Positions 1-57,911 of a stretch of DNA of 64,000 nucleotides are shown one piece after another. The stretch is from positions 124,001-188,000 of the forward strand of contig QPGO01000109.1 of assembly GCA_008632985.1 (NCBI GenBank), written 5' to 3'. The position numbers and the translations under genes were made by a program. The notes under the pieces are model-generated. The model searched no databases. It saw nothing but the letters and a program-made list of their open reading frames with translations, and had not been told where the DNA came from. This stretch comes from Psammoneis japonica (lineage: Eukaryota). Position 1 is the first letter of the stretch. Each line of letters starts with the position of its first letter.

Positions 1-18
1 TGCGGACTTGCTGTCTCA

Positions 19-16751: not shown

Positions 16752-19564
16752 TCCAATGTCACAAAATTGCCAGCCGTCATCGTTTGTCCCAAAGCTGCTC
16801 TTCGTTGATGGTTTTGTTGAGTTGAGGCCCGCACTGCATTGTCACCTGGGTGCAGATGTGCTGCAGGGTGACGCTGCAGCATCTGTCCTGAGAGACGGTC
16901 TCAGAATGTCCAGAAATCCATTGGACCATCGACTTTCCATGATGAGTCTAACCCACCCTCTGCCATTTCCAAATGAACATCACACGCAATGACGACAGCC
17001 ATGGCCTTGCCGTGGTTCATCACAGAATGCCAATGCTTCCAAGAACGACAGAACACATTTGCATTTTTGATGCAATGGTCAAATGAATCAACTGTGAGCA
17101 AGATGAGAGACACAGATCACGGGCTTCATTCGTCTCAATTGCCCAGTGTCGCTTGCTCTTGTTTCTGCCTCTTTCTTGATGCCCCACACATTTGCTGCAC
17201 TCGTTGAGGGCATTCACAGCAGCAATGTTGCACGACGAAGTTGATTGAAATGAGCAAAGCACATGTTGGCAGCCCCCAGCATTGCGCGTGGGTGCCACAG
17301 TCTTGACAGCAACAATCGGATGATCAAACCCAGCAGCTTTTGATCTTGCATTGGATGGTGTTTGTTTTTTCTGGAAGTGCTTCCCTGGGACACCTGCAGG
17401 CAGCCGATCCCTCCGACGTGCAATTGCAGCTGAATGGCCATTTTCCCCAATCCAGTCTGAACTGCAGTCAGCGTCAAAGCAGTTGTCACATGTTGCGCGC
17501 GGCTTTCCTGGGAACATCTTCTTGGGTCCGGCGTCGTCGCCCACACTGCCGTCGTAACCCACCATTTCCCCCACTTGTTCCAAGATCACACGAATTTCCG
17601 TCGGGCCCATGGCGCCCCATCCATCTGTCCGTGGGTGCAATTTGTGTCGTCGAACACAAGCCCGAGGTCGCATCCGGCGCACATCCAACACGATCACTGT
17701 CAGACCGCCCTTGGTGATGCCGGGCTTTCCAACTGTGCGACTGGCAATCCCGCTGCCAGCTTCACCACAACCCGCGTGGCCCCAGGTGGTTTCGTCACCA
17801 CATTGATCCATTTCTGCATGCAGTGTTGTCGCGTTGACATTGTGCACTGTTGTCGAGCAAAGCATGTCATGCTTGCATGCCGGGTTGCACCCGGCTTCAC
17901 CTCTTCCAGGGGATGTCATGTTGTTGCATGGCTTCAGCACTCGCTTTGTTTGAAGCCAACGTGAGCAGCGAATCGACGAGGACACACTCGAGTCACAGTC
18001 GGATCCATCAGCCATCCACCTGCGGTGAATGGCTCCGTCACTGCCACCCTTGATGCCGTCTCAGACAATCACTGCATCAAATCTGACAAGCTCCTGGATG
18101 TTCACAAGTTTGAAATCATGTCCATGCAATGAGCACAACTTCAACTCTGCCATGGCGCACAAGTTGGAATGCATCCCCACTTTGCTGTAGAACGACTTTC
18201 TGGGGTCTGAGTTGACACCGGACCGTGCAGTGTCACACATTGGGAGAATCAATTGATGGAAAAACAAAGCATCCCGATTTTTCATCCGCTCAGCATTCGT
18301 TCCCAACAATCGCAATGCATTTGCATCCAAAGATCCTTTCCTTGGTGCTGGAAACAGGTTGTCCTTTGATGCGCCCGATCTGTCAGGCAGTTGCAGCATC
18401 AAATCCTTCTCGGCAACATCGTCACTGGACATTGACCCATCCATTGCAAATTCTCTTCCCTTCTGAATTCTCCGGCACTGGCACGGCCCCAGTTGGCAAG
18501 CCATGTTGAGTGCACTTCTTGCCCCCTCTTGCTTCAAGCTGAGAGCGGAAAGCATGTCTGCTCCACCCTCCTGGATTGTCCACATCAGCAAATGGTGGCT
18601 CCCCCTTGTCTGCTTTCATCTCGGGTGGCTGCCACCCTTCAGGAGCACCAGGAATGTTCAACTGCACTGACGGGTCACGCTCACCAAGGTGCAGCAGCAA
18701 GGCAGTGTGGTCGTTGTCAGCCACAGTCTGTTCATCACTGTCTTGGTCCACAACACGCGATCTCAACCTTTCCAAATGGGCATCAGCATGAGCTCCATCA
18801 ATGTCATTGACATTCTCATGCTCTTCATCGCTGTCACCACCATCTCCCGTCTCTGTCTCATCCGCAAGGACGTGCTCGGGGTCCACCAGTTGGTCCTCCG
18901 CAGCTGCGGGACCAAAGTCTGTGGCCGTCATGTGCAGTGGCAGCCCTGGTTGTTGTGTCGCCATTCCACCAAACGCTTCATTGGCACTTGCAGAAGCGGC
19001 CATCTTCGTCGCAACGTTGATGCTCCGATTCACTGAGCGTGTTGCTTTGACGACAATGGCGGTGGCTGCGGTTGTTTTTTTTTTTGCAGTCATCGGCTTT
19101 TCAACGTAGGCTCAGGTAACATTTCTACGGTGATGCGTCACTGCAAAAAACCCGGGATTCAGTCCCCGAACACCCCGGTTTCAAGCCCACTCTAATAACG
19201 ACAACAAAATGCCAATGTAACTCCAACCGTTAGACATGTTATTTGAAGGGTAATCAGTCATTTACATCCTGACTAAAACCTCTGAGTAATAATCAATGGT
19301 TATTGGATATTTCCGTTCAACGGCTAACGGCTAGTGGAAAACCCGGGACTGAATCCGGGTTTTTCGGGGCGCCCAGACTAAACGATAGATAACTCGATGA
19401 TTGATGATGCAGCAACAATAAGCTGTTGTTTGTTGTTGTCGTTGCGCTTCACACATTTGGCGGCAGATGACGAGAGGTAGAAGACTTATTGGCAAAAGTT
19501 GTGGATGCGACTATAGCACTATACGCGTTGGAGCCGCAGCGTATAGCAACGAGTCCTCTCCGAC

Positions 19565-20531
19565 ATGAAATTATTGTCAGCGGTGCAAAACAGCAACAAG
19601 AAGAACAAGGCTCGATCCGTTTTACGAGTCGTTCGTCGATTTCTCTTTCCCATTTGTTTGCTTGTTGTTGTTGTTGCGCTTGGAATGATGGGAGGAGTGT
19701 GGAGGAATGATTATTATTTGGTGACGACGGCAACGGAGCAAACCGTGACGGGGTACTTTGACGCCCCCGTTCACCTTGTACAGGTAGGGGATACTGCCTA
19801 TGCTCACAAAATGTCCAATCATACGCTTCGTAATCGCCAATGGGCAGAGTGCAGGAAGTTCAATTACACCTTGATTCCGATACAACCGGATTCTGCAGCT
19901 GGTGCCAATAACACCGACTGTATCTACACTCGCAAGGTACAAGCGATTCAGAATTTCCTTTTCAAAGTCCCAAACGACGAGTGGATTAATTTTTCTAGAT
20001 TTGGACGTTCAGTATGCGGCTCGTTCGTGCATGGCACTGGATAGGATTCTGCCCACTGTCTCGGTCAAGGAGAGTCAATCGTGTGAATTCATGGCGCTCG
20101 GTTCCTATCACACAATCAATACAGGTGTCCTGATTGTCAAGTCCACCGCATCGACCCGACAACTTGTCAAGGACTGGTACCACCGACAGAAAAAGTTTGC
20201 AATCTGCGGTGGTGCTGCGGATCAAATATCACTTCAATCGGTAATGCTGGATTATGCGTCACGGAACCGGTACAAGGGCTCTTGTGATGATGACGATGAC
20301 ATGAGTCTTCATGGACGGAATTTATGTTTTCGAAAAAGCATGATTGCCTTTGGTTGTCGCAAACGATCGTTTCGGAATGTATGCTTGTTGGGTTGTGGTG
20401 ATGGACTTCAATGCAAAGATTGTCATCATTGGAAACGATGGTTTGTCCGAACGAGTGGGATTTGCAATGAGAACAAGACAGTCTTTTGGCACGACAAGCA
20501 TCACGCGCTTGAGTTACAACCACCCACATGA
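19565..20531 (+). CDS. Type II membrane glycosyltransferase-like protein (GT34/MNN10-like) with a 1-nt frameshift near 19987
   Basis: N-terminal TM helix, RKVQAI, IFLDLD (DxD), INTGVLIVK, DQ motif; two overlapping ORFs (19565-20044, 19902-20531) join at tggattaatttttctagat. Confidence 0.65.
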
Positions 20532-21403
20532 AAAGAAGTGTGAAATCATTGTTGTGGATGGGATCTGGCATAGAAACAAAAGATATTTTGTATCAATGAC
20601 AAGTGGAAGGGATGGTGGAGGTACACTCGACTGTGGAGACCGTTCCTTGGGTGCTGCAGCTGCACTCTGTGTCCCCAAGATGTGTTTCAGTGCCGTTTGT
20701 GGAATTGTTCAGGGCATTTGTGCTGGAATGGTTGGTCCAAAGGGAGCTGGCAACTCTTCCGCAAATCGGCACATGGAACTAGGACGTGACGAGGAGACCG
20801 GCTGTGCTCCGAATGAAATGCGTTGGTAGGCGAAAGCCATTGTCTCTATAACCTCACCTCTGGTGGCATGGTCACACAAGGTTGCTGAGGTTGATCTCGA
20901 CGTTTCCTTGCATCGAAAGCAAGCGTGATTCAGAAACAGGAGCAGCCAAAAAGGACACAACTTTGGCAAATGTGTGCGCAGCGTGGTGTTTTCGGTTGAC
21001 GAGCGAGGAGTCCAATTTTAATTGTAGCGAGAAAAATCAAAATGGAGAAGCACCTTATTCCAAACAATTTTTAGCTACAGTAGCTAGAAGCAGTAGAGGA
21101 TAGTTATAAAATAGAGGCAGGCAGGCAGGACGAAGCTTTGCACTGTAGCACATACACCTAAATATCGTACGTTTCACCCTCGAACCCGCGCCATCGCAAT
21201 TATTTCACGGTCAAGCCGCAACCCCCTTTGACCTTGTTGCGAGGCCTTTGCATCAAGTATCAGAAGCTTAAAGACTCCAAGAGCGAACCTAAGAAGTCTT
21301 TTGAGAGTCATATGAGATATGGCAAATGAGTGGTATCGATTGAGGCAACTATTGGATAAAAACGATAAGAGCACTGAACTCCCATCATACCGTGACGTCT
21401 GAA

Positions 21404-23047
21404 ATGAATAACAGCTGGACCGGCGGCAGCGCTGTTCCTCCGCCTGCCTTTGAAAACAACATGGCTTCGCAGAGTACACTGCCTTATAATCAAGAGCAGC
21501 AGTATAATCAGGTGACACCGCAGTCATCTACGTACTACAACCGAAACAAGAACAGCAATGAACAGATGTTCGCCTGTCTGTACACCAAACAGCTCACGCA
21601 AAAACGCAAAGTGTGGCACGATGGGAAACTCATACTGACAAAATCGCCGTCGTCCTTTCATATGGTATTGCTCAAAGCGACTCCAAGTCTCGGTACGACG
21701 GGAACAGCTTTGGAAGAGTGTGATTTGACGATACAGCAGGGACAAATGATGATTGTATCCGGTAGTGACGAGACTGTGGAAACCGAGAAACACCTTATTC
21801 AAGTGCAAGGGCCGTGGATAGAGCCATCGAATCGCACATCAACGACTCTAAACAATAGTGGTGGTCCGTCCACAGGGATGCAAAAGATACTCAAGACAAA
21901 ATTTCATAAACCGAATCGATTTGTTCCTCCTCCTCCGCAACAGCATAAAGCGCCAACACTTCTCGGGAAACGGACTCGTCCTTTACAACCGGGAGAGTTG
22001 CAACGACGACATTATGGAGAATCTTGCCCACCAGTACAGCAGCAGCAGCAGCTCTATGGTGGCTCTCAACAACCGTCCAACTGGGGTGGACAACAAGAAC
22101 AGCGCCACAGCCCTCACCCGTCCAGTGGCGGTGGACCACACGAATATCGTCCTTCCTCGAATAACAATCACGGTGCTACGTCGAGTTACCCAGAGCCTTC
22201 TCGAAACATTCCGGGGCATCTTCAGTCATCGGGCAATCATGCAAGAGGACCAGTAGCTGGTTCCAACTACGCTCACTCGAATATGAATACTGGCTTTGCG
22301 TCTGGTAATCCGTATGCACAGGGTTCTCGTGAGAATAGGACGCCCCAGCAGCAGCATCAACCTTCTCGTGTTGACAACAACGACTACCAACAATTCTCAT
22401 CGAACCAACCGCCACCGCCCATTATGGATGCCACACGTGCTCCTCCAACGAGTCATTTTGTCAGAAACGGTGACGGACACGACGGAAACAAGGAGAATCA
22501 TCGTCAGCCGCAAGACATGCAATCTACTGATAGGACGCGTCCAAGCCAGAACTCCTTTGCCAATAACGACTTTGATCCAAACAGTATCTATGGTGAAGAA
22601 GAGGATGACGACGGCATGAATCATCACAATGATGCGCAAAGCACGGCTCCCTGGCACGGGAATTATAATACCGCATCTACCAATAGTAGTATTACAAATG
22701 CGTGGGGCCCTGCTTTAGACACGAATCGCCAACAAGAGCCGTGTCCTTCTGGAACGCTGTCTTCTCACAAAAATGTCCCGTCTGGAGAACAAGACAATAC
22801 GGGAGTCGCAGAAAAGAAGCCATTGTCCACGAATCAATTGCTCCTACTCTTTGGCGTGGGATCGGCTGCTCCAACGGATGCCGGCGCTACAGAACGCGTC
22901 CCTGAAGAGGTTCGAGGCAATCCTGCAACTGCACCGTTGGATGGCAATGACAATGACGGTACTCCCAACAATGACGCAGAAAATCAATATGCTTTTGATT
23001 TACCGTCTCAATCGTCCTCTGACTCTTCGTCGGTGGACGATGACTAG
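21404..23047 (+). CDS. DUF2439 (ZGRF1-like N-terminal) domain protein with a long disordered Q/N/P/S-rich tail
   Basis: FACLYTKQLTQKRKVWHDGKL matches the DUF2439 signature; uninterrupted ORF with normal composition; first ATG at 21404. Confidence 0.8.
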   Translation: MNNSWTGGSAVPPPAFENNMASQSTLPYNQEQQYNQVTPQSSTYYNRNKNSNEQMFACLYTKQLTQKRKVWHDGKLILTKSPSSFHMVLLKATPSLGTTGTALEECDLTIQQGQMMIVSGSDETVETEKHLIQVQGPWIEPSNRTSTTLNNSGGPSTGMQKILKTKFHKPNRFVPPPPQQHKAPTLLGKRTRPLQPGELQRRHYGESCPPVQQQQQLYGGSQQPSNWGGQQEQRHSPHPSSGGGPHEYRPSSNNNHGATSSYPEPSRNIPGHLQSSGNHARGPVAGSNYAHSNMNTGFASGNPYAQGSRENRTPQQQHQPSRVDNNDYQQFSSNQPPPPIMDATRAPPTSHFVRNGDGHDGNKENHRQPQDMQSTDRTRPSQNSFANNDFDPNSIYGEEEDDDGMNHHNDAQSTAPWHGNYNTASTNSSITNAWGPALDTNRQQEPCPSGTLSSHKNVPSGEQDNTGVAEKKPLSTNQLLLLFGVGSAAPTDAGATERVPEEVRGNPATAPLDGNDNDGTPNNDAENQYAFDLPSQSSSDSSSVDDD

Positions 23048-23261
23048 CTAGAGCGTCGAGTCCTACTTGTAGCGGAAAAAATAGAACAGCGTCTTTTTCA
23101 ATCATTATAGCTAGGACGAAGCTGTTTATACTTCTACTTGACGACTGCGTAGTATTCTACTCGAGGGAACGCTAGCTATCTCCACATCACACAAAGCTGC
23201 TCCAAGCGCTTCTCACGGTCAAGGTCAAGTTTTCCGCCGGTTTTCACCATTTATATTTTCC

Positions 23262-25750
23262 TCATCGAAAACTCCACCGAAAGCCAATTTCACCCAAGCG
23301 TTCCTCACGGTCTCGGTTAAGTCTCCCAGTCTTCTTCGCTTGACGTTGCGTATCCAACCACGTTCCAAGGTTCTTTCCATCCTCCACATGGCTGCATCGA
23401 ACGTTGCAGCCCCCCTCCCGTTCTTTGAATTGAACAAGAAGTCGAAACATTGCTTCCCAACGTTCAGAAGGAAGATTCCAAGCAACACCAACCTCTTTGA
23501 GCCGTTCCTCAAGAGCACTGTCCAGCTTTCCAGCATTCCTCAAAACACGCTGTTTCTTTAGCCACTCTCCAAGGTTCTTTCCATCCTCTTTGTGCTTTTG
23601 TACAACGTTGCAGCCCCCCTCCCGTTCTTTGAATTGAACAAGAAGTCGACACAATGCTTCCCAACGTTCAGACGGAAGATACCAAGCAACACCAACCTCT
23701 TTGAGCCGTTCCTCAAGAGCACTGTCCAGCTTTCCAGCATTCCTCAAAACACGCTGCGTACTTAACCACCTTCCAAGGTTCTCTCCATCCTCTTTGTGCT
23801 TTTGTACAACGTTGCAATCACCCTCCCATTGTTTGAATTGCACAAGAAGTCGATACATTGCTTCCCAACGTTCAGAAGGAACATTCCAAGCAACGCCAAC
23901 ATCTTTGAGCCGTTCCTCAAGAGCACTGTCGAGCTTTCCGGCATTCCTCAAAACACGCTGCGTACTTAACCACCTTCCAAGGTTCTCTCCATCCTCTTTG
24001 TGCTTTTGTACAACGTTGCAATCACCCTCCCGTTGTTTGAATTGAACAAGAAGTCGATACATTGCTTCCCAACGTTCAGAAGGAACATTCCAAGCAACGC
24101 CAACATCTTTGAGCCGTTCCTCAAGAGCACCGTCGAGCTTTCCGGCATTCCTCAAGACACGCTGCGCACTTAACCATGTCCCGAGGTTCTTTCCATCCTC
24201 TTTGTGTCTACGTGGAACAAGGCAATTCCCCTCCCTTTCTTTATAAACCAAAAGCAATCCATACATTCGGTCCCAATTGCTTTCACGATTCTTGTACTCC
24301 GTAATTGCTCGATTCATGATAATAGTCTTCATTTCAAGCAGCATTGAGTCTGAAAGCATGAATGATTCAAGTACCCGAGATGGGAATTCTGTATCAAGCA
24401 GAGGCCTTCCGAGTCTCGCGCTCTCGTCAATCACAAACACGACATCTTCCCGTAATTCGGGATCCAATCCTACCATCGCATTGAATGCTAATGTGAAAGA
24501 TTCATAGCCACCTTCATCTTCGATAAATTCAGTGTCACCAGTTATAGGCGCTGGTACCAAAACGTATCCACGCTCTTTGCCAGGAGCCTTCCGGCTAACA
24601 CGACCAATCATTTGGCGCGCGTCAACGGTACTTCGGACAGGATCTGCCATCACCACTAACTCCCAATCTGCCTCGTCCACACCGGTCGCCAAAACCCTAC
24701 AGTTGGCAACAATCGATTTGGTCGCGTGTTTGGCATTTGACAATATCTCTTCCCGCTTGGTAGGTGACATGTCCGAGCTGCCACTAACCGCAAATGCGGC
24801 TATATCGTCCTTCTCAAGAACTGGGGCTGCGTCACGCACAAAAGCACGAGCACGGTAGTTCATGGAATGGAACGAAACGGCGCTACTCACATTGAGCTTG
24901 TGAAAAGCCGCTTGAACTACAAATGGCAGTAGGTAATCCTTTGAGAGTGCCGGTGGGACGGAACCGTCAAGGAGCGGATCAGCAAGGACGGCGCTGATTT
25001 CGTCGGCATCCAATACACAAAGTGTGATTGGAACGGTGATATTTTGTTTCACGGCATCACTTAGCGTCCGTTTCGCGAGGCATGGTCCAAATAAGGTTGC
25101 ATTGTTAAAACTGCGGACACCAGTGACTTTCTTGGGCTCTGAGCTTCTATTAGGAATGAGCGTTCGAGACCCATCCTTGCAAAGTTTTCCACCAATAATG
25201 TCAACCTGTTGTGGAGCATCCGTGTACCGACGAGGCGTGGCTGTTAAAAAAAGGCGATAGTCAACTGGGAGCCGCGAGTCATAGAGACCATAGCCAGAAA
25301 GTTTGCCAATCCCTTCCATCTCGTGCGCCTCGTCAAACACGGCAAACCCCATTTTGGCACCAAGCTGCTTTAGCGCCTCTCCCACCTTGGGTAAGGACCT
25401 GTAAGTGCAGCAAATAAATGATAATCCATTTTCTTCTGAACCAAGAAAAGCTGCAATCTCATCAGAAGAGGTTGAGCAACCCTCGGTTCGATTGGTCTGG
25501 CTCGCCACAATTAATCGCGAGTGAGGCACGTGATCAAGTACGCCGAACCTATCCAAGTCATCCAGTACTTGATCCACGAGTTTCAGAGTCGGTGTGACAT
25601 AGATGACTGACTGGAGTCTTGTTCGTCTTGAACCTATTCCATCTAATGCAAACATCTTCAAGGCAAGCAGCGTTTTACCCCATCCCGGCGGTAGCTGAAC
25701 GTTTGCCCTGGGAACGTATTGAGGAGAATCTCGAGATTGTTTAGTGTTGC
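23262..25750 (-). CDS. SF2 (ResIII-like) helicase with tandem helicase-associated (HA) repeats; probable extra 5' exon(s) up to ~26213
   Basis: Frame is open upstream of the called ORF through LPPGWGKT (Walker A); FDEAH, LTATP, GVD, QMIGRVSR; five ~68-aa W..MY..L..FK.REG.C.V...LG.WL..QR repeats; an upstream ORF at 26213 starts with a signal-peptide-like segment. Confidence 0.85.
23280..24290 (-). repeat. 204-bp tandem repeat encoding HA domains, about five units
   Basis: Near-identical blocks offset by 204 nt (e.g. 23762 and 23966). Confidence 0.9.
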
Positions 25751-26274
25751 TGTTCAGATTATTGCCTCCTCCCCTTTCTCCTCCATTCTATGACGATTTA
25801 ACTTGACAAAAGTGTTGAACAATTGAATCTAAAATGTCATCGTGGCGATTGTCTTGCTCTTGGTGGTTTTCTTGGTTTCCCTCTGACGTACTTGAACGCA
25901 TCTCTGATAATGTGTTTTGTTGTTTGTTCTGCATGTCTCGTATGATCTCGTTTGTCTCGACAGCTCTCTATGGAACGAGATAATCCAAGTGCTGGTCCAG
26001 TATAGCAAACAAGCACCATGTGTGGCTGGTTCAACACATGCTTCCGATACTGCTGTATCATTCAAAATCTCGACGCTTATTGCGACCTTGAGGTGAAAAG
26101 CACTGCGTCTCCGTGCATCACCTCTTGATTGTCCGATTTTTGTTGACTGGAACGTTGATATAACAGTAAGCTGCAAAATCAGTACAAGAAGGAAAAGAGC
26201 TTGGGTATAACCCATTATTGTCTGATGCGATTGAGGGAGAAGACACGACGAAAAACTAAAACAACGTTGTATAG

Positions 26275-29200
26275 CCCGCGTGAAGATTTTCGTCTGTTTT
26301 TTGTCCGTTCGTGCTCCTGTGGGCACGAACGGAGGCTGCGTAGGACTGTACTGCCAAATCCTGTAGATGCCCGTTTTCATGCCAACAGCCAACCAAAAAA
26401 GGAGACAATGGCGTCGTTCTGTATCAACGCCGAAGTCGGGACGTCTAGAACCGCAGCGCGCCGCTTTTCTGCTCGTAGACTTGTACGCTGTCCTGGTACA
26501 AATGTCATTGTATGCACAGAGTCTACGATGAGTCTGCACTGGAGCAAGAAATCTCGATTTGAATTCTCAGCAACCAACTGTGACTTTTTTGAATTTTCAT
26601 TTTTATGCTGCATCCCAAGCAGTCTTACTATCTCGCCTCCCAGATTCTACAAACACAAGACAACACAGAGATGTCACTCCACACATGCCAGCACCAATGG
26701 ATGAATCGGCGTTGCACTCTGTGACGACGTCCGAGTCAGATTGGGTGGAGCGTTTTAATCCATCAGAGGACTTGAATTTTTGCGACAAGGATCTCCACTT
26801 GATTGAGGACAGCTTGATGGACAAGCATGACAGAACCGAGCAGTCAAAGGACCGTCCAAAATGGAAAGTGGACAATGATGGGAAAGATGTCAAGATCACC
26901 TTTAGCCAAGCTCCCCAAAAGGTGTGGGAGATGGCCAAAGCTGAGATTCAGGGATGTCGCGAGAGGGTGAAAAAACTTGCAGGACGAGAGTGCAAATCTG
27001 TTGCCATTGAGGACATTGCATTGCTGTTTGTGGGCAGTGCCCGTCCTCTCATGCAACTTTTAGAGTCAGAGTTGTCTCTGAACTTTCAAGAAGCTTCTCA
27101 ATTTCTTGCCACCCGCTGCAAGCAAAAGGCATGTTGGTTGTCAGTTGAAGAGTTCTGTGATGACGAGGACATAAATTGTGGTGGGCTCATGACTGAAGAC
27201 AAGCACAAAATGGTGTGGAAGTCAACAGGCCATGCAGGCAATGCGCCATCGACGGCTCGCAAGACAAAGCGGTTCTGGGAAAAATTCCAAAACAGGTTCA
27301 ACGAGACGTGTCAAGAAACAAATGTGAGTCAGTCAGCATCCTTGATTGTTTCATTGGACAACAATAAAAAGAAAGCTGCAGTCAACAATGGAGATGACAT
27401 GCAAGGTCTGAAGCAGGTTGTGCACACAGACAAGCGAAAGAGCATCATCGGCCACACAGCCGTGTCCCCTGCAAGTTGGACAAATGCTGTGTGATGATGC
27501 TGTGCACAACACATGCCCAAATGTGTGTGCAGAGAAGGGACTCAACAATCAGCCGAGTGGCAATTTCTTTGCCTCTTGGGTTGTTGAGAACCTCCCGCAC
27601 TCGTTGGGTGGTGTGCAGCACTCTGACTGGTTATGAGCCCAACTGCCCACCCCGGATGGGGTTGGAATGGGGCAGGCCGAGAAAGAAAAGGAGGCTTGGA
27701 TTTGAGGCCGATTTTGACTGCGGACAACCCTGGGAAGACAAAGCACTGTTGTGGTTGAGTGGTTGTGAGTCTTTATGCTTCCTGAGGTCGCTGGTTCGAG
27801 TCGGCCTCAAATCCAAGCCTCCTTTTNNNNNNNNNNNNNNNNNNNNNNNNNNNNNNNNNNNNNNNNNNNNNNNNNNNNNNNNNNNNNNNNNNNNNNNNNN
27901 NNNNNNNNNNNNNNNNNNNNNNNNNNNNNNNNNNNNNNNNNNNNNNNNNNNNNNNNNNNNNNNNNNNNNNNNNNNNNNNNNNNNNNNNNNNNNNNNNNNN
28001 NNNNNNNNNNNNNNNNNNNNNNNNNNNNNNNNNNNNNNNNNNNNNNNNNNNNNNNNNNNNNNNNNNNNNNNNNNNNNNNNNNNNNNNNNNNNNNNNNNNG
28101 GCAATTTCTTTTGCCTCTTGGGTTGTTGAGAACCTCCCGCACTCGTTGGGCAGTGTGCAGCATTCTGACTCTGCAACTCTTTTGACGCACGGTGTTTGCT
28201 GGGAACGAGTTGGAGACACAACTCATGACTGTTGTGTAAATCTTGTGGAGACAACATTTGGACGGAAGCCGACGCTCGACCGAGTCACGTTCTGTTCTGA
28301 TCATGGTTGTTGGACAATGAAGCTTCTCATGCTTGCTCGAGAATGGAGCCGACATTCATGGGATGGCAAGGCGTCAACATTGGCACCACTTCACTTGTGA
28401 CCGGACATTAAAGATCGGTGACCCCAGGGTCTTGATTGACACAGCAGGGCCGGCAACACTTCACATGGGGGCTGCTTCGGTTTCAGAAAGGAAAGTGGAC
28501 ACAAGTGCTTTTCGAAACGGCATGAATGGTGTGGTGTTGTCTGTGTCAACTGTGTGTCATGGCGCCCATTGGGATCTTGTCCTCAAGGGGGGGAAAGAGC
28601 AAGTGTCAAAGCATGCTCTGCTTGTTTTTAACTCCCGAACATCATTGGGCTCACACGTTCCGACAGTTTCTTGAAGATCAGCCAATTGATGAAGAGACGA
28701 TCAAGGAGTTGTCGAGGTTGAATGTTGATCATGTTGCAGAGCATCAAGGTCATTCAGAATGGTTCCAAGGACGCAAGCAAGCATGCACTGACCTCCTCTG
28801 GTTCAGATGCTCAAGTTTCAGTTCACCCCAGATTGGACAAAGCGCGAGAGCAGCGGCAGTCGCATTGGGTGTGCCTGGAGAAGCATCTTGACATGACATC
28901 TGGTGTCGAAGATTTGGTGTCTCAAAATGATGACAATGATGATGCGGCACCGGCTCAAAATGACAATGATGATGCCACTGCACAATCCAATCCAATGACT
29001 GGTGGTGAAGGGAGTGCTGCTGGCTCAGAGGACACCGATGATGATGATGTTGTGGATTGGGCTGAGTTGGAAAAATGCTTGGATTCAGAAGATGTGGAAG
29101 AGGAGGAGCGGATTTCTGTCATTGAGAGCCGACGTTGGGAAGCAAAGGAGGTGATGAAGAAAGCCAAGGAAATTCTCAGTGATGCAGTTGACTCCACCAA

Positions 29201-47782: not shown

Positions 47783-47884
47783 NNNNNNNNNNNNNNNNNN
47801 NNNNNNNNNNNNNNNNNNNNNNNNNNNNNNNNNNNNNNNNNNNNNNNNNNNNNNNNNNNNNNNNNNNNNNNNNNNNNNNNNNNN
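47783..47884. other. Assembly gap (N run)
   Basis: Run of N. Confidence 0.99.
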
Positions 47885-48854: not shown

Positions 48855-51800
48855 TGAACAAATGCTGACATGCTGTCACGAACACAGGCAGTTTATGTGC
48901 TGTTGGCGATTGGTCCACTGTTGCTCAATTGGTGGCCCCAGCAGCGTAACATCTCACAATTCCAGAACCTGTTGATGCTGTTCAACACTCTGTCTTGTCT
49001 TGCACCAAATTCTTGGCTGTCATGGTGGCATTTGTTCACTTTGTCAGAGCCAATGCGCCATGATGTTCATTGCCTGGAACGGGCATTGCGAACGGTGCGA
49101 CGGCATCATTGCGATCGATCGATTTTTGCGGCAAGCGCCATGTTGGTCCCATGGTTGCTCGCGCAATCGCTGAGTCCTTTGCATGTGTCAACATTCATGG
49201 ACACAAACGACATGCTCTTGGAGACCAGAGCTGTGATCCGTTAGACATGACGTTGGTGGACGAAATGTTTGATCATGTGGATGGAACATGTTGGCTAAGA
49301 CATGTGAACATTCGTGATGCAGATGACACAATGATTTGTGTGCAGAGGTCTCTCATTTGATCATGTGCATTTCATTGATCAAAGTGCGTCATCAAATTGT
49401 TTTGACACTGTGCATGTGGGTGCATGTCTGTTGGACATTGTCGCCTGGGGGCAACACCGCCTGCTTGCGGGTTCACCAAGCAGAAACCGCCAAATCGGCA
49501 CGAGAACCACACATTTTTCTCACTTTCCTCCACTCACACAAGTGGATGCTCACGCGTCGAAACGCGAACAACTGCTGACACACCATGGCCGCTGCCGCAG
49601 CCTTCACCGCCTGTCTTGCACATTGTGGATGCAATGCGCAGACGCGCACCTGCACAGCCCGCCAAGGCTTTGCTGCGATCGAGGACCTGGAACAGGTCCC
49701 TTTGACGGAAATTGCCGATGTGACCAAGGGCATTGTGAAGAGTGTGGATGCCGCCGCCAACCCCCAAGTCCGCTTTCCACACATGGCCAATCGCAAGCTC
49801 AAGGCACTGCGCGCATGGATTGACTGCCGCAGAGCTCGGAATCAAGAGCCGACCACTGCTCTCTTCGCTGGCGACGCCATTGGAACATGGACGACACGTC
49901 TGACGGAACTGGAGCAATTCAAGTCTGCCGACTCGGACAACGAATCGGCTGCCAAAACGGCCGTGGAGCTCAAGAACCCATGCAACTGGCCTGCCTTCCA
50001 AGAGCCACTGGAGACCAAACTGCGTCACCACCGCAGTGCCGTCACCGGAGTCCCCCTCATCTGCCTGACCAGGGAGCATGAAGAAGTCACTGCCGAGATG
50101 TTGGCTGCTGCCTGCACTGCCATTGACGAGGACCTCATTGCTGCCACCCGCCTTGCAGGAGCTCAGTGTGCGCAGGACAGGCAACGACTGCATGATCTCT
50201 TGAAGAAGTCAGTGATGGGGGGCCTGGATGGGCTTTTGTCAAACCTTCCAATCGCAATCGCGATGGTCGCACTGCCTTCTTTGCACTTGAGAGGCAGGCG
50301 GAAGGATCGGCTGCCGCCACCACCCAAAAGAACCGTGCTCACGCACAGATTGCCACCGCGAAGTGCACCGGATGGGGTCGATTTACATTTGACCAGTGCA
50401 TTCAGCGTCATCAAAAGGCTCACAAAACGACTTGTCTGAGCTTGATGAACCGGTGGCCGAGACCAAGAAGGTCTCTGACTTTCTGAAGGGTGTCTCCGAC
50501 CCCAGGTTGGAAACTGGCAAGAGCACAGTGGATGGAGACCCAACGAAGCCAGTGGATTTTGAGGCATGCCAGCAGCACATGAAAACTCTGGTCAAGAATG
50601 CCAAGAACTGCAATGCTGACACTCGCGGGATCGCATCCGTCCAACGCCGCAACAATCGGAGCACCAACCCTGGTGGGAAGCACCAACCTAAGAAGGACAA
50701 GCCCAGGATTCAGGCAGGCCATTGTCCATTGAAGAGTGGAGTGCTCTTGATGGTCCTGAGCAAGAGCAAGTCCAAAAGCACCGCGATGCCAAGAAGGCCA
50801 AAAAGAAATGCAAAGCTGCTGCTGCATCCTCAGAGGCTGAGTCGGTCGACACCGAAACTTGTGCTGTGAAGAAAGTGGCCACTGCCGAGCCCACTGCTCA
50901 ACCCACTGACACACTGAAAGACTCCGACGAGCCTGACAAACCTGCCGCCAATGCAGGCACCCAGTTCGGATGCAGTGCGCATGAGAAACCTCAGAAGGAG
51001 GAATGAACAGTTGCGCCAGCACCAAAAGGTGCAGAACCAAAAGTCACTGCACCTGCTGGCACTGTTTGTTTGTCTGGGCGCTTCTCAAAGGATGTGCACA
51101 TCTCTTTGTCATCTGCTGGAAATTCAGATGACGAAGCCACCACTGACTTGGACTCACACGCTGACATGTGTGCTGTTGGGTCCAATTTTGTGATGCACTC
51201 TGACATCAACAGAACTGTCGTGGTTCACCCCCACTCCGAAGAGCATGCGCCAATGGAGGGTGTCCCCATTTGCACGGCTGCTGCCGTGTGGGTTGATCCA
51301 ACTGATGGACAACCATGCCTGCCACTCGTCCACGAGGCCATGTTTTTTGGGGACAAGATGACTGACACCCTCCCATGCCCCAACCAACTGCGAGCAAATG
51401 GGCTGATTGTCCACAATGCCCCTCGCCAGTTTGATCCGACCAGCACGCACTCCATTTCTTTTCCTGACTCGAAGATCAGGACACCATTGCGAATGAGAGG
51501 TGTTGCTTCAGTCTTTGATTCACACAAGCTGACAAAGGAGGATCTGGAGAACCTCCCCCGGCTGGAACTTGCATCGCCCCTGAGATGGGAGCCTTCTGCT
51601 GATGCCATGGCGCAAAAGGAGGAAGCACATGCATGCGCCAGTGTGCGCCAAGGATCAGCAAAGTTGGGTGGATGGACGGTCGACGATGATGAATGTGACC
51701 AGGTGTGTTGCTTCCATTCATTCATGCCAAACGTCCCATCACAATGAGAGTGTCATTGTGGGTGCCAATGACAACGATTCATTTGTCACTGCCTGGTTGC

Positions 51801-54800
51801 TCAGGCAAATGTCTCCCACAACGACACTGAGGGAGACGGGCCACACGACCGGCATGACCCAGATGTCCACCCGGATTGTGCCGAGCGGAAACGGGTGCAT
51901 GCACTGTCAACCTCGAGTCGTGCATCAACACCATCACGCCCGAGACACTCTCTAAAAGGTGGAGCATTGGCCTGACGGCCGCTGAGAACACCCTCAGAGT
52001 GACGACCCAGGCAGGGGTCCGCAATGTCCACACACCATCCAAATGGAAAGTCCGGAAGAAAGCCCCTTGGCTTAAGTTCCCTGCTGTCAAGGGATGACTC
52101 TACTCCAACCAGATGTTTTCGAAGGTCAAATCGACACATGGCGAGATGGGAGGAAGTGCACTTGCCAACGGAAGGGGGTGTGATGGGTTCTGTCCTTGGA
52201 AGAGGAAACAGGACCACTCAGACGCCGTCATGTCATTCACACATGACGTTGGTGCACCGCAGGTCCTTGTGTCGGATGGCACGCAGGAAATGGCGGAAGG
52301 CCAGACCAAGGAGATCTGCAAGGAATGCAGGACACACCAGGAGGTGTCCACCCCATGCAGCCCCTGGCAGAACCCAGCCGAGGCATCCATTCGTGAGTTG
52401 AAGAAAAGAGTCCGTGTGACTCTACGCCGGACTGGCGCTCACAGGCGACTTTGGTCCCACAGCGCCAAATGGACATGTGACATCCAACGCATGATTGCGA
52501 CCAGCATGTTGGACATGGGAGGACGAGTCCCAGAAGAGGAGGTGACAGGTTCGACACCCGACATCTCTTCCCTCTCTCTCTTTGATTGGCATCAACCTGT
52601 GCATTGCTGTGTGCCTGTGGCGGAGTTCCCACACGAAAAGAAGTGCATTGGCCGTTGGCTTGGAGTGGCTGACAACTGCACTGATGATGTGGCATTCATT
52701 GTTTTGCCCGAATCAGGCAAACCCATTGTTCGGAAGGATGTGTGGGCCATGCCGGAGGATGACCTTAAAACTCCGGTGATCCAGATGGATCTTGCATTGG
52801 TCGATCAAGCTTTGATCGAACAGCTTGGCATCCCAGAAAAGGATGCCAGTGCTGACTTCCCTGAACTCCCTGACAACTTCATGGACGAATGGGATGATGC
52901 CGTTGAACCCGTGGAACCCGACTCTTCCAAACCGGAAGCTGATGAGTCTGCCCCGGAAGGGCCAGATGAATGTCTCACAGCTCAAGTCATGTCACCACGA
53001 GGAGGCAAGCTGACTCATGCTAGGGTCATTGCACGCAAGCGAGACAGCGACGGGGTTCCCATTGGTGCCAGGAACGACAACCCTGTCCTGGACTCGAGGA
53101 TGTGCGACATGGAATTCCCTGATGGATCCACTGATTCCTGTGCTGCTGGCGCAATTGCAGAGAACCCATTCGCTCAGATCGACTCTGAAGGGAATGCCTG
53201 CCAGATCATGAAGGAAACAGTCGATCACCGACGTGATGCCCATGCCGCAACGGCCGATGACGGGTGCATGACGACTGAGACTGGCAGGCATGCTCCTGGG
53301 AGGATGACCACAGGCTGGGACCTGCAAGTTGAATGGAAGGATGGGACCACATCCTGGGTTCCTCTCAAGGATTTGAAGGAGTCCAATCCAGTCAAGGTTG
53401 CTGAGTGCGCTGCAGCGAACAAAGTGGCTGGTGAACCAGCCTTCAACTGGTGGGTCCGAGACGTCTTGCGTCGCAGGTCAAGGATCCTGAAGAAAGTCAA
53501 GTCGCATCACTGGAAACACACGCACAAGTTCGGAATTGAACTCCTGAAATCTGTTGAGGAAGCCATGGAAATGGATGACAGAACGGGGACCGACTTCTGG
53601 TTCAAGGCTGTCGAGAAGGAAATGCGTGACGTCATGCCTGCGTTCGAATTCCGTGATGACGACACTGCACCGGTCGGGTGCAAACACATTGATTGTCACA
53701 TGATCTTTGACATCAAGAGCACCCTCCAACGTAAAGCGAGCTTCGTGGCGGAGGCCATCAAACCAATCCACCTGAGGAATCGACACATTCCAGCGTGGTG
53801 TCGCGTGACAGCGTTAGGATGGCATTCACTGTGGCAGCTCTGAATGACCTGGAGGTCCTGAGCACTGACGTTCAGAATGCCCACTTGAACGCACACACTG
53901 AGGAAAAGTGTTGCACCGCTGCTGGCCTGGAATTTGGGAAGCAGAACAAAGGAAGGCCGGTGATCATTGTCTGTGCCTTGCATGGTCTCAAGTCTTCAGG
54001 TGCAAGATTTAGGGAACATGTGGCAGCTGCTCTGCGGGACGCTGGGCTCGAATCTTGCAAGGCTGACCCGGATGTCTGGATGCGGGCTGCGGTCAAGCCG
54101 GATGGCTTCAAGTGCTGGGAATGTGCACTTGTTTATGTGGACGACTTGTTGTGCGTCTCCCATGAACCTCAGAAGGTCATGGATTGTATGAGCTCTAGGC
54201 ACACGCTCAAGGACGGAAGCGTCTGCGAACCGGAAGAGCACTTGGGCACCCAGATCAGAAAGTGCCAGCTGTCTGACTCGGATGGTGAGACACGCTGGGC
54301 CATGTCCTCTGACCTTCATGTCAAAAGAGCATCAGCTGACGTTGAATTGGAGCTTGAGAAAACTGACAGGCATCTTCCGACGAAGGCATTGAAGCCTTTG
54401 AGCTCGGGACACAGGCCTGAACTGGACAGCTCACCTGAGTTGAATGCCAAAACGGCTAACCACCATCAAGGCCTTGTTGGTGTGCTGCGGTGGGCAGTTG
54501 AACTGGGGTGAGTGGACATTTTTGTCGCTGTCTTGCTCATGTCCTCCTGCTTGGCAGCACCATGAGTTGGACACCTGGACGAGGTGCTCCACATCTTTGC
54601 ACACTTGAAGGCTCACTCTAAGTCTGCGCCAGTGTTCAATGACTCTGAGCCCGTCTTTGACGAGAGTCGCTTTGCCAAGTGTGACTGGGAAGAATGTCAC
54701 CCTGGCACGGCTGAACCAATGCCGCCGAATGTGCCGGAGGCACGCGGGAACAGCGTGACCACTGCTTGCTTTGTCGACGCTGATCACGCCGGATGTGTGT

Positions 54801-55552
54801 GACGTGCAGGTCCCACACTGGGATCCTGACATTCATCCAACGAGCACCCATCTTGCATTGCTCTAAGCAGCAGAATGCCGTAGAGTCCTCTGCTTTTGGG
54901 TCGGAGTTCGTGGCCATGAAAACTGCAGTGGAGCAAATTGAAGCCTTGCGTTGCAAGCTTCGGATGCTCGGAATCCCCATGGATGGGGCCACCAACGTTT
55001 TCTGCGACAATGAAGCTGTCTTCAAGAACTCAACTAAACCAGAGTCCACTTTGAAGAAGAAGCACAATGCAATTGCCCATCACAGGACTCGTGAGGCACA
55101 AGCCGCTGGAACAGTGCGCATTGCTTGGGAAGACGGACGCATGAATCTGGCGGACGCACTGACTGAGTTGTTGCCTGGACCAAAGCTCGGGAAATCACAA
55201 GTCATGTCCCATGGCAAGTCCCAAAAGGGGACAAACCGAACGGGTTTGCCGCGTGGGTGCGGCTTTTCCCACCCCCAAAATGTGACTGCTGCCCTGGAAT
55301 GGGGCAGCATCAGGTTGCATTTGTCTGTTGATCTGACCCAAGCGGAGCCAGTGTCAGTTCGAGGGGACTGAACAAATGCTGATGTGCTGTCACGAATGTA
55401 GGCAGTTTATGTGCTGTTGGCAATTGGTCCACTGTCACTTGGTCAGTGGCCCCAGCAGCGCAACATCTCACAATTCTAGAACCTGTTGATGCTGTTCAAC
55501 ACTCTGTCTTGTCTTGCACCCAATTCTCAGCCATCATGGCAGCATTTGTTCA
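48855..55552 (+). mobile_element. Full-length Ty1/Copia LTR retrotransposon (diatom CoDi-like), inactivated
   Basis: 184-bp LTRs 48855-49038 and 55369-55552 with TGAACAAATGC...GCATTTGTTCA ends; AAAG on both flanks; tRNA-Met-like PBS remnant tgtcagagcc; PPT gaggggac; gag from 49585; protease LDSHAD, integrase PWQNPAE, RT YVDD, RNase H DADHAG and CDNEAV in Copia order. Confidence 0.95.
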
Positions 55553-57143
55553 AAAGGGTGTCAAGCTTGTGACTGTTCTTCTTCTTTCACCAGCAAATTG
55601 TTCTCTCTGTCTGCTGCAGAAGAGCCAATCTTCAAAGTCAAGCAAGCAAATCTCACTGCAGCACCGGCACCACACAAAGAAATGTTTCTCCACAAGAATC
55701 TCTTTCACACAATTGATTGTGGCTCTTCTGTTCTTTTCAATGATGCCACAGAGCAACATGACAAAAAGCACAAATGCACATGCATGAGACATCATTTGAA
55801 TGGCGACAACAGGCAAAGTGACACCCGTCAGTCGCTGCTTTTTGGGACACAACAAAATGGTGACTGTGGCAGATGACAGAGCTGTTGTGCACGGGCACCA
55901 ATTTCTTGCCGATTTGCTGCCAGACCGCCAATTTCCAGACACCTTGTTGACCATGTTCCTGCGCGTGTGTGTGTGACAATTGGAAGTGACATCACATCGT
56001 TGCTGACGCTTGCATTTTCATTTTGACCATGCGCCGTGCATTGTCGAATTGTTGTTCACGCTGTGTGCACCAATGTCTTCACCAGACACCAATGATTCCA
56101 ACAATGAGAAGCTGTTCTCAGGCAGCCTTGACAGTGCTTGTCAGATGAATGCATTGGCTCCAACTCCTGCCAACAACGGCGATGCTGCTGGCATCATGGT
56201 GGATCTGGTGTTGCTCTTGTGGCAGAGGGACGTGGTGGTGAGCAACGAGGTTGGAAGAGCTTCAAGCCCATGGTCTTGCAAGCCACTTGCAAGGACTCCG
56301 TCACCAAAACTGATCATGTCACGTTGCTCATTGTGGCTTCATCTGGTGTGTTTGCACCACGGACCTTTCTGGCTTCCAGCTGTCTGTTGTGGGCAATGGA
56401 ACGATGCTCAGCTGCATCTCCCAATGGCCTCAGAACTCCATGGACATGGATGCTCTTCATGCAGTTCTCCTTTCTGAAGCTTCTGCCAAAGGGGGTGGCC
56501 ATGGTGGCAATGATGAACTGTGTGACATGTGCAAGCGTCTTGAAGCTCTTTCAGATGAGATGGCTTCAATGGGGCAGTCTGACTCTGAGGTCCTGTCTTC
56601 CACGGCCATCACTCCCTTGTCAATCCAGGTCTCTAGGAAAATTGACAAGGTCCATTTGTTGGGTGGGCGCGATGGGTCCAGGGTCATTCATGTGGACCTC
56701 AAGTCGGAAGATTCGACATGTTGTGCTGTGGAGAATCCAGCAGTTAAGTTGATTGATGCTGTGGGTGACAGTGTTGGACTCATTGACAACAATTAGGAGC
56801 GTCAATGTTGGCGGATGGGATGCGCGCACATTTGACTCAACACGCAGATTGGGGTTTGGGATTGTCAGCAACTGATTGGCATGAGAAAATGCTGCTTTAG
56901 ACAACAGTCTCAGCACAACTGGTTGTTTGTGTGAAACACACAACTCAGCTCAATCTTGGGCTTGCGCTTTGTGGCAAGCAGGCTGGCACAGCAACATGCA
57001 GTCATTGTCTGCTCATGTTTTTATAAAAAAAACCACAAAATGACACAAGACCTGCACAGCTGGACAATTGCCATGATCCACCTCATCGTTTTGTCATTTG
57101 TGCATGCGCTTGGTGTGTGAGTGCACGTGTGCAAATGACAACA

Positions 57144-57911
57144 GATGTGCTCCAGCTCTGGGTGGGACCTTGCGCTGTGGCTGGAGTTCATTTTTTGAAA
57201 TTTGGAGTGGATTTCTGCTCAAGTGGTGCAACACGTCACCAAGTTGAAGCTCATTTCATTGGAAGGAAAACAAAAAGCACGAGAATTGTCACGTGCCCGG
57301 TGTCTCAACGATGATGCTCACAGCTTCTTGAAAATCTTTGGCTTTTTGACGTGTTCCAGCCGCATGTGAACCAAATCGTGCACAAAAACAACATTTGCGT
57401 GATTTTTGCGTGGTCCCTTGACGATCAAACTTTCGCCACCAAAAGCATGGAATTTGCAAATGCAAATGTTTTTCAACACTGACAAGACTCGTGTGAGTGT
57501 TGCAATGTCATTGTCATTGTGCCAGGGGCCCCACGGGTGTGTTTTACATTGCGTTAAAAGATTTGTAACACAACGGATGATTTTCGGCGAAAATGTTGCT
57601 GTCATTTTGATGTTGCCTAAATGTGTCTTTCTACGATCATGCTTGGCAGGTTTTCTACCTGCAAAGAAATCTCGGTGTAAATTCACTGATGCACAATGTC
57701 TCCATTGAGTCCACTGAGGAAGTCCACAACACATGTCCCATGAGGATTTGAGTGACCCTCAAAAAACTGTTTAAGTGTTCATGCTCTAGAAGCCCACAAA
57801 AGTCAATCCGTCCAAGCATTTGTTGTCAAAATGCTTCACACACTATAAGATGCACAAATCATGTTCAAAATGGACTGTCGTTTTGTGCGTCACCTGGGAC
57901 TGGAACACGTC
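57144..57911. mobile_element. Possible divergent GAC-TIR family copy
   Basis: gatgtgctccagctctgggtggg at 57144 and cacctgggactggaacacgtc ending 57911, but flanks (aaca/tttt) give no TSD. Confidence 0.45.

Follow-up and report, generated by a model that had tools for sequence, protein, structure and literature searches.

Loss of TpA from transposon-rich domains of a diatom-like genome follows a graded rule spanning at least two bases on each side of the site

The Copia element and its surroundings

The window studied here, i.e. the whole 64-kb stretch of contig QPGO01000109.1 that was analysed, alternates between gene islands of ordinary dinucleotide content and low-TA, transposon-rich domains where the dinucleotide TA (TpA) has nearly disappeared. 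The largest of these domains contains the relic of a Copia retrotransposon, whose few remaining TAs lie mostly between a pyrimidine (Y) and a purine (R). We describe below how the survival of TA depends on its flanking bases, in this element and in all low-TA domains of the window, and which process might be responsible. The features on which the argument relies are the following; TA, CG and TG/CA contents are given as observed over expected ratios (o/e).

27001-64000: largest low-TA, transposon-rich domain; per kb, TA o/e 0.01-0.17, CG o/e 0.23-0.88, TG/CA about 1.3-2.5
10001-19000: second low-TA domain; repeat families in common with 43.6-47.7 kb and 33.1-33.6 kb
1-3000: third low-TA domain, extending past the left edge of the window
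3501-9750: gene island with ordinary TA (o/e 0.4-0.8), defined by dinucleotide content and used as in-window control
19251-26500: gene island with ordinary TA, also control; ZGRF1-like open reading frame (ORF) and helicase with helicase-associated (HA) domains
48855-49038, + strand: 5' long terminal repeat (LTR) of the Copia element with TG...CA ends, direct repeat of 55369-55552
49585-55200, + strand: Copia interior, a dead gag-pol relic recognized by Pfam (RVT_2) and by tblastn of relatives; 19 TA
55369-55552, + strand: 3' LTR, direct repeat of 48855-49038

In the Copia element, RVT_2 is matched at 53735-54511, and the proteins of 120 relatives cover 49585-55210 by tblastn, in three frames. 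The two LTRs are 88% identical in plain letters and 99.5% identical in the purine/pyrimidine alphabet: among 184 columns they show 22 differences, of which 21 are transitions, 16 of these forming eight adjacent CA-versus-TG doublets. A TTAT site is retained in both (48894 and 55408). As a background for the interior we took related Copia sequences from metagenomes (80 loci with 365,642 bases and 17,260 TA), from which about 265 TAs would be expected where we count 19. The TA o/e of each of these 80 loci lies within 0.46-1.01, so that a low TA content is no trait of the Copia lineage.

The three low-TA domains display, per kb, a TA o/e of 0.00-0.17, a CG o/e of 0.12-0.88 and a TG/CA o/e of about 1.3-2.5, against 0.4-0.8 for TA and about 0.9-1.2 for CG in the gene islands. 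Pooled over strands, the TA o/e is 0.06 in the low-TA domains, 0.55 in the gene islands and 0.70 in the Copia relatives; the corresponding values are 0.47, 0.93 and 0.91 for CG and 1.72, 1.23 and 1.15 for CA/TG, the only class that clearly rises, while GC is somewhat raised (1.17 against 0.99 and 0.94). When dinucleotides are grouped into ten strand-symmetric classes, TA and CG are alone in dropping; AA/TT is unchanged (1.21 in the low-TA domains, 1.16 in the gene islands), and so is AT. The process behind this loss stops at, or is kept out of, the gene islands.

The base composition is nearly equal on both sides, at about 50% GC: A and T amount to 0.252 each in the low-TA domains and to 0.261 in the gene islands. 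The domains are thus invisible to GC content, since A:T>G:C changes at TA are balanced by G:C>A:T changes at CpG. Their borders are sharp, with a switch within 250-500 bases at about 3000-3500, 9750-10000, 18750-19000 and 26500-27000.

Flanking bases of the remaining TA sites

A preliminary description of the stretch had reported that the TAs left in the Copia interior are mainly CTAA, TTAA, CTAG or TTAG and that RTAY is almost gone. Both statements hold, and every word that it quoted is present. Twelve of the 19 sites are YTAR (CTAA 6, TTAA 2, CTAG 2, TTAG 2), six are mixed, i.e. YTAY or RTAR (CTAC 2, TTAC, TTAT, GTAA and GTAG one each), and one is RTAY (GTAT). Among the TAs of the relatives 18.7% are YTAR and 32.5% RTAY, so that an unmutated interior of 5616 bases should hold about 50 YTAR, 129 mixed and 86 RTAY sites; survival relative to this expectation is about 0.24, 0.05 and 0.01 respectively. 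Against the shares of the relatives, the binomial probability of at least 12 YTAR among 19 is 2.5e-5, and that of at most one RTAY is 0.006. Two other normalizers agree: the 1071 TG and CA sites of the interior itself, 27.5% of which lie in Y..R flanks, give P = 0.0012 for 12 of 19 YTAR, and YTAR makes up 12% of the TAs of the gene islands. The further claim that pyrimidine-TA-purine is refractory stands in relative terms, YTAR being spared when compared with RTAY, but not in absolute ones: it is still about 4-fold depleted in the Copia interior (12 sites for about 50).

The same pattern extends over the window. The 201 TAs of all low-TA domains divide into 110 YTAR, 86 mixed and 5 RTAY, against 62, 284 and 153 for the 499 TAs of the gene islands (chi-square 159.6, p 2e-35), and removing duplicate contexts changes little (197 unique sites: 107 YTAR, 85 mixed and 5 RTAY). 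When the low-TA domains are cut into seven sub-blocks the pattern is present in all seven; RTAY, with 0-2 sites per block, is the rarest class in six of them, and the 1-3000 sub-block contains just 9 TAs, none of which is RTAY. Tetramer counts, run together with hexamers in transposon and gene domains as the preliminary description had proposed, show that survival is not uniform once normalized for ancestral frequency. Densities in the low-TA domains, as ratios to those in the gene islands and to those in the relatives, are:

TTAA: 0.73 to genes, 0.38 to relatives
CTAA/TTAG: 0.47 to genes, 0.23 to relatives
CTAG: 0.22 to genes, 0.12 to relatives
CTAC/GTAG: 0.10 to genes, 0.12 to relatives
GTAA/TTAC: 0.15 to genes, 0.11 to relatives
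ATAA/TTAT: 0.06 to genes, 0.06 to relatives
ATAG/CTAT: 0.03 to genes, 0.02 to relatives
GTAC: 0.02 to genes, 0.02 to relatives
ATAC/GTAT: 0.01 to genes, 0.005 to relatives
ATAT: 0 to genes, 0 to relatives

The ranking is nearly identical under both normalizers, with a single swap, between CTAC/GTAG and GTAA/TTAC. A methylation of the CHG type, which would make TAG/CTA, was considered as the origin of the pattern; it fails for TTAA, the top survivor with 50 of the 201 sites.

The five surviving RTAY sites are at 15970, 39345, 45932, 46066 and 54187, and the first four of them stand two bases or less from a CpG (cgTAtg, tgTAcg, tgTAcg and cgTAca). Besides, the motif cgcacgTA is repeated at 16697, 41621, 45940 and 46066. 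Protection by a neighboring methylated C, a young repeat or chance are possible reasons for this proximity.

A graded rule over six bases

To describe the second flank we pooled strands and considered the half-sites TA-N1-N2. A is found at +1 in 50% of the survivors against 22% in genes, and at +2 in 56% against 27%, with a weak residual effect at +3. Adding +2 to a model based on +1 alone improves the fit by a chi-square of 214 for 12 degrees of freedom. The fitted decay constants are 0 for the coldest half-sites, TAAA and TAGA; they rise through TAAC (0.76), TACA (0.94), TAAG (1.06), TACG (1.10) and TAAT (1.13), then TAGG (1.52), TAGC (1.71), TATG (1.88) and TAGT (1.98), up to the hottest, TACT (2.66), TATT (2.70), TATA (2.86), TACC (3.17) and TATC (4.0). 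The order of protection, A>G>C>T, is alike at +1 and +2.

At the level of the complete site the two extremes are far apart. RRTAYY is absent from the low-TA domains, whereas its density is 3.0 per kb in genes and 4.7 in relatives, which corresponds to about 150-230 sites expected. TYTARA on the other hand is found 30 times, i.e. 0.61 per kb, a density equal to those in genes (0.59) and relatives (0.63); with 30 sites, the Poisson range of this ratio near 1.0 is roughly 0.66-1.4. YTAR sites with neither T at -2 nor A at +2 survive merely at 0.08-0.15. If each of Y at -2, Y at -1, R at +1 and R at +2 is counted as one protective flank, survival climbs with the score from 0 (score 0) to 0.003 (score 1), 0.05-0.06 (score 2), 0.22-0.32 (score 3) and 0.49-0.96 (score 4, i.e. 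YYTARR). The loss of TA is set by a graded rule that spans at least NN-TA-NN, and in which the second flank weighs as much as the first.

CpG, the other dinucleotide lost from these domains, does not share this rule: the shares of Y..R, mixed and R..Y flanks around CpG are alike in transposon and gene domains, so we find no purine/pyrimidine flank rule for its loss. Its context effect is mild and base-specific, with GCGC at 0.97-1.00 of the background, CCGC/GCGG at 0.73-0.75 and TCGA lowest, at 0.40-0.47.

A change at the DNA level after integration

The coding sequence of the Copia relic offers a way to follow what TA has become. In a tblastn alignment we retained 738 codon columns with at least 30 relatives and a majority residue of at least 60%. 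At the 34 conserved Tyr columns the relic has kept Tyr twice only (6%); Tyr has turned into His (CAY) in 17 cases, into Cys (TGY) in 13, and into Leu and Phe once each. The non-Tyr residue classes of the same 738 columns are kept at 53-100%, and Arg columns show changes of the CpG type, towards His, Cys, Gln, Trp and stop.

Repeats within the window tell the same about the products. Intra-window pairs outside the gene islands give 29 partly overlapping alignments with 5175 columns, in which transitions account for 532 of the 711 mismatches and the most frequent dinucleotide difference is CA against TG (125 cases). Such a doublet implies an ancestral TA (or CG) changed oppositely in the two copies. 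A self-search after recoding in purines and pyrimidines, aimed at older repeats, recovered essentially the same pairs as plain blastn. Within RR__YY flanks, moreover, TA, CG, TG and CA taken together keep their density (low-TA domains 16.3 per kb; the two backgrounds 16.9 and 17.4), so that lost TA reappears as product. TA loss also outruns the decay of methyl-CpG, since at 17-18 kb and 49-50 kb it is near complete although the CG o/e there remains at 0.76-0.88.

The LTRs of one element are identical at the time of integration. As those of the Copia element now differ by 21 transitions, including the eight CA/TG doublets, the mutator acts on integrated DNA. The change goes from TA to TG or CA, follows integration and depends on the context of the site.

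This bears on a first alternative, by which an ADAR-like enzyme would edit A to inosine in the transposon RNA, the edits being then fixed by reverse transcription. ADAR favors a 3' G. The element is indeed a retrotransposon, and ADARs are described as favoring U before the edited A (bioRxiv 10.64898/2026.01.13.699255). Editing of the RNA would, on the other hand, leave the two LTRs alike, and they differ by the transitions and doublets just mentioned; the depletion spans whole domains of 9 to 37 kb, beyond the interiors of retroelements; and G at +1 belongs to protected half-sites (TAGA 0, TAGG 1.52) instead of being favored. We regard an RNA-level origin as extremely unlikely.

The same doublets argue against a sequencing artefact, in which modified bases at TA (and CG) in repeats would be miscalled as TG or CA. 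TA and CG are both classic sites of modification, which gives the idea some ground. A systematic error would however always put one and the same wrong letter into a given context, and here copies that share identical flanks differ, one reading CA and the other TG (125 doublets over all alignments, 79 in non-redundant columns); miscalling is thus unlikely. Contigs of a public run also bear on this point. Aligned to 48-64 kb at 80% likeness they give 8890 pieces, as for a large family, with 2005 transitions and 390 transversions at the places that differ, and short contigs match single-copy low-TA stretches with 1-6 differences per 658-979 letters. This last argument is weakened as the run may be the source data of the window itself, and so is no independent proof; from a second run, 5 contig pieces matched. 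All in all an artefact seems hardly credible.

Survival or re-creation of TA

The TAs present today may be either survivors or newcomers, and the flank rule has a different meaning in each case. A mutator indifferent to context could have removed all TAs equally, those now visible having been created later by C>T changes of its CA and TG products, with a bias such as that for dipyrimidines known for ultraviolet light. Under such a scheme YTAR can be regained by two routes, mixed sites by one and RTAY by none, which predicts roughly the 110:86:5 that we observe. We therefore turned to tests in which the ancestral state is polarized, using among others the repeat families shared by 10001-19000, 43.6-47.7 kb and 33.1-33.6 kb. 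The repeats of the helicase, gapped columns and pairs with discordant flanks were dropped, leaving 3487 non-redundant columns.

In Y..R flanks, 4 pairs hold TA in both copies, 9 hold TA facing another dinucleotide and 15 are CA/TG doublets; the same categories amount to 3, 15 and 34 in mixed flanks, and to 0, 1 and 30 in R..Y flanks. If all doublets are taken as former TAs, the surviving copy-sites are 17 of 86, 21 of 172 and 1 of 122 respectively (Fisher test of Y..R against R..Y, p = 1.3e-6). Ordered by the number of protective flanks, from 0 to 4, TA-holding pairs and CA/TG doublets are 0 and 3, 0 and 29, 8 and 28, 16 and 15, 9 and 2. The implied survival per copy, about 0, 0, 0.08, 0.2-0.4 and 0.5, agrees with the estimates made from densities. 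All seven pairs with TA in both copies have scores of 3 or 4.

The many TAs placed opposite a TG or CA of the other copy (9 in Y..R and 15 in mixed flanks) suit a later re-creation, as does one site of the LTR pair, TCTAGA against TCCAGA. The seven shared TAs suit it less, for all have protective flanks and none appears at scores 0-2, despite 60 low-score doublets that prove a former TA or CG. The bias needed is also absent from the repeat pairs: outside CG and TA, C/T differences reach 0.010-0.025 after pyrimidines and 0.056-0.098 after purines, the opposite of a dipyrimidine preference. Besides, re-creation would match the TYTARA density of both backgrounds by coincidence alone.

The coding sequence leads in the same direction. 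The two Tyr codons that survive are:

52101-52103, + strand: ctc TAC; with TC on its 5' side, the opposite strand has a TAGA half-site
54134-54136, + strand: gtt TAT, coding for the Y of YVDD; with TT on its 5' side, the opposite strand has a TAAA half-site

Both are certainly ancestral and both have a TARA half-site, which speaks against re-creation. Two of the five Tyr codons placed after TY survive, and none of the 29 others does (p = 0.018). In at least 10 of the 19 Copia TAs, moreover, the A opens a codon for Lys, Asn or Arg that requires it, and this residue is the commonest or a frequent one among the relatives, only about four of these columns being strongly conserved. Taken as a whole we judge a context-free mutator followed by re-creation very unlikely: today's TAs look YTAR because they are mostly ancestral TAs in poor contexts.

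The C/T differences outside CG and TA show a further feature: their frequency in R(C/T)Y contexts exceeds that in Y(C/T)Y contexts by a factor of 3-5. This excess may stem from a second, weaker tier of the process, acting on R-T-Y / R-A-Y.

Reading of the TA step and nature of the lesion

Since Tyr codons lose their TA towards either His or Cys, they also report which of the two base pairs has changed. After a pyrimidine they have become 9 His and 6 Cys, and after a purine 8 His and 7 Cys. Where the constants of the two half-sites differ by at least 1, the changed base is beside the hot flank in 7 cases and on the far side in 10. A strand-local model, in which each flank would govern the adjacent base, is ruled out by these counts, and its mirror, a far-side model, is likewise unsupported. 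The side that changes being unrelated to the hot flank, it is the TA step as a whole that the flanks make more or less vulnerable, with a nearly random product. This suggests that the site is read as duplex DNA. Two models fit equally: recognition of a duplex step over about six base pairs, or a single-strand enzyme that weighs positions -2 and +1 of its target A. The dependence on purine/pyrimidine class, and an order of A>G>C>T common to +1 and +2, resemble the effect of shape or stacking more than that of base-specific contacts. The impression from nearest-neighbor energies, by which TACC is stable yet hot and TAAA weak yet cold, goes against duplex stability as the cause.

From these data, which are those of sequence comparison, the explanation that we find likely is the following. 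After an element has integrated, a process acting on DNA would turn TpA into TpG or CpA (A:T>G:C) throughout transposon-rich domains, and would have run almost to completion here; it would be of the same kind as that reported in Bigelowiella natans. Its efficiency at each TA would be set by the two bases on each side, according to their purine/pyrimidine class: RR-TA-YY would be wiped out and YY-TA-RR, above all T-Y-TA-R-A, largely spared, each flank position adding protection. The TA step would be read in the duplex, then one of its two A:T pairs changed at random. The lesion would be enzymatic, most simply a deamination of adenine to inosine, while the decay of methyl-CpG, itself mildly dependent on context, would proceed alongside in these domains. 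The preliminary description had seen in the flanks a sign of enzymatic recognition beyond the dinucleotide. The second half of this statement stands, as the dependence on flanks holds after normalization and in the polarized tests; the first half is plausible, and so is the idea that the preference resides in the enzyme forming the lesion rather than in repair.

Several points weigh against this explanation. All counts come from one 64-kb window, and what we call ancestral frequency is a proxy, taken from gene islands and from relatives in other species. These relatives were chosen by two peptide patterns, one of them with a Tyr, which biases them towards intact copies. The pair tests assume a random product and an independent decay of CpG. 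Of the seven TYTARA sites found in repeat pairs, four are matched by TG or CA in the other copy, one of these four being in the LTR pair, so that some present-day TAs may be new, or the TYTARA density ratio of about 1.0 may partly reflect a balance of loss and gain. The simplest form of the rule, the strand-local one, was the form contradicted by the Tyr products. Finally the A:T>G:C change could equally start from a modified thymine.

This last point deserves some development. Thymine in TpA might be oxidized by an enzyme of the TET/JBP type to 5-hydroxymethyluracil (5hmU) or 5-formyluracil, mispairing with G then giving T>C. As TA is its own complement, A and T are inseparable as targets in these data. 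5-formyluracil does pair with G; 5hmU itself pairs normally, which counts against this route, and we know of no base of these types in diatoms, which counts against it too. In dinoflagellates, 5hmU is described as made by TET/JBP enzymes, enriched on repeats and silencing transposons, and older work cited in the same source ascribes to it a TA and TC preference in Crypthecodinium (PMC11572971); the base-resolution map described for Breviolum, on the contrary, shows no sequence preference (PMC11071213). We hold thymine as the target to be unlikely.

The selectivity might also lie downstream, if the lesion arose equally at every TA and its repair, i.e. the removal of inosine or of modified thymine, worked better in YY-TA-RR. 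A graded effect, tied to purine/pyrimidine class and indifferent to which product forms, is what a structural influence on any base-flipping enzyme, one of repair included, would give. Such a repair would leave the picture that we see, and none of our results weighs against it; a selective repair is rather improbable in our opinion, the preference being more plausibly that of the lesion-forming enzyme.

Comparison with known systems

On TpA-specific A:T>G:C hypermutation of foreign DNA, our searches of the literature found one report, in B. natans. In mutation-accumulation lines of this alga, 231 of 302 nuclear point mutations are reported to fall in two integrated viral regions, nearly all being A>G or T>C and those all on TpA, at an episodic rate about 1000-fold over the background; the genome is also described as containing TpA-depleted, CpA- and TpG-enriched clusters that include reverse-transcriptase and DDE genes, and an ADAT2-like deaminase is proposed as the agent (Mettrop et al., April 2026; bioRxiv 10.64898/2026.01.13.699255). 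The window shares with B. natans, as there described, the restriction to TpA, the TpG or CpA product on either strand, the action on integrated DNA, and a target made of foreign or silent DNA with host genes spared; here the changes are confined to the transposon-rich domains. It differs by its host, a diatom-like stramenopile instead of a chlorarachniophyte, by the extent of the depletion, which affects retrotransposon-rich domains of 9 to 37 kb at a TA o/e of about 0.06, against a Rho of 0.45 given for the nucleocytoplasmic large DNA virus (NCLDV) region of B. natans, and by the decay of CpG that accompanies the loss of TA. In the main text of the preprint the words flank, context, trinucleotide and tetranucleotide occur 0 times each. 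As far as our searches reach, two points are new: the flank rule, and a process of this kind found near saturation in the genome of a diatom-like host.

Fungal repeat-induced point mutation (RIP) resembles what we see in several respects: it serves as a defence, changes integrated repeats by transitions only and prefers certain dinucleotides, and as a result transposon genes die and domains of odd composition lie beside normal genes. In fungi it is set off by sequence duplication ahead of meiosis and requires a methyltransferase of the RID type. Its direction is opposite. RIP is described as changing C to T, mostly CpA into TpA, which makes TpA and AT-rich DNA (RIPCAL, PMC2621366), whereas here TpA is destroyed and the base composition stays at about 50% GC.

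The deaminases TadA and ADAT2 would give A>G through inosine. In their natural tRNA target, A34 follows U33, i.e. UA, and the substrate loop of TadA is UACG; eukaryotic anticodons with A34 mostly have a purine at position 35. Such a purine corresponds to the protected context here, contrary to what would be expected of ADAT2, and, unlike the UACG loop, TACG and TACA rank on the cold side of the TAY half-sites, so that TadA, put forward for comparison in the preliminary description, does not fit. Besides, TadA and ADAT2 are single-strand enzymes and the Tyr products point to a duplex-level readout. ADAT2 can nevertheless act on DNA, on both A and C, as described for BjADAT2 of amphioxus, with GAA as the context for adenine and TCG for cytosine (PMC10354150). 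This adenine context is not the one found in the window, where the hot half-sites are TATC, TACC, TATA, TATT and TACT and the cold ones TAAA and TAGA. For cytosine we simply observe that TCG is preferred by BjADAT2, the sole ADAT2 with a known activity on DNA in this source, and that TCGA is the most depleted CpG context here.

Two further systems were considered. DNA polymerase eta leaves in somatic hypermutation a WA>WG signature, in which A>G follows a preceding T and WA includes AA. The other spectrum named for comparison in the preliminary description, it agrees no better: AA/TT is not depleted (1.21 in transposon domains, 1.16 in genes) and transversions are rare. The 5hmU of dinoflagellates is a thymine modification aimed at repeats, for which an old report mentions a TpA preference (PMC11572971). 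It is however known as an epigenetic mark and not as a mutator, and a loss of TA is not described in the parts of these sources that we consulted (PMC11572971; PMC11071213).

The same signature in the transposon compartments of a diatom-like genome suggests that the process is wider than one lineage. Its flank rule amounts to a six-base fingerprint with a dynamic range well over tenfold, which can be applied to the published de novo mutations of B. natans. This fingerprint weighs against ADAR, DNA polymerase eta and the known DNA contexts of ADAT2, and favors a readout of the duplex; it predicts which codons and motifs of invading elements are able to survive, and offers an assay for candidate enzymes, with RRTAYY compared to YYTARR oligonucleotides. 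It is conceivable, if somewhat doubtful, that diatoms and chlorarachniophytes share, or have twice evolved, a genome-defence editor of TpA in duplex DNA with a six-base shape code, for which RR-TA-YY would be optimal and YY-TA-RR immune. This would be a natural adenine editor of double-stranded DNA, a type not yet described, of interest to the base-editing field; its code would reveal the action of the editor in any genome, predict the sites that escape it and allow candidate enzymes to be tested directly.

Other features of the window

The remaining features that we recorded are:

3814-5937, - strand: long open frame of 707 amino acids (aa) in the first gene island
6189-8222, + strand: long open frame of 677 aa in the first gene island
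23262-25787, - strand: helicase of 841 aa (DEAD/ResIII/Helicase_C) with five HA domains, from Pfam
27827-28099: run of 273 N, an assembly gap in a low-TA domain, seen in the letters
47783-47884: run of 102 N, an assembly gap in a low-TA domain, seen in the letters

The frames of 707 and 677 aa have no Pfam match and no usable match in the protein atlas. By the relatives of its genes the host is probably a diatom: the helicase with HA domains has a named relative in Pseudo-nitzschia multistriata, the ZGRF1-like ORF has relatives in Fistulifera solaris and Ditylum brightwellii, and Copia has one in Nitzschia inconspicua, with a best identity of 64% or less in the three cases. The HA domains are encoded by tandem units of about 204 bp, 82-89% identical (23283-24276), and the TA content of the helicase is ordinary.

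On the right of the Copia element, a local cluster of 13 TAs is found at 57-58 kb. The summed depth of the public-run contigs culminates at 57078-57611, where it attains 15558, against 6000-10900 across Copia and 230-540 further right; this segment may be a very abundant repeat of some kind.

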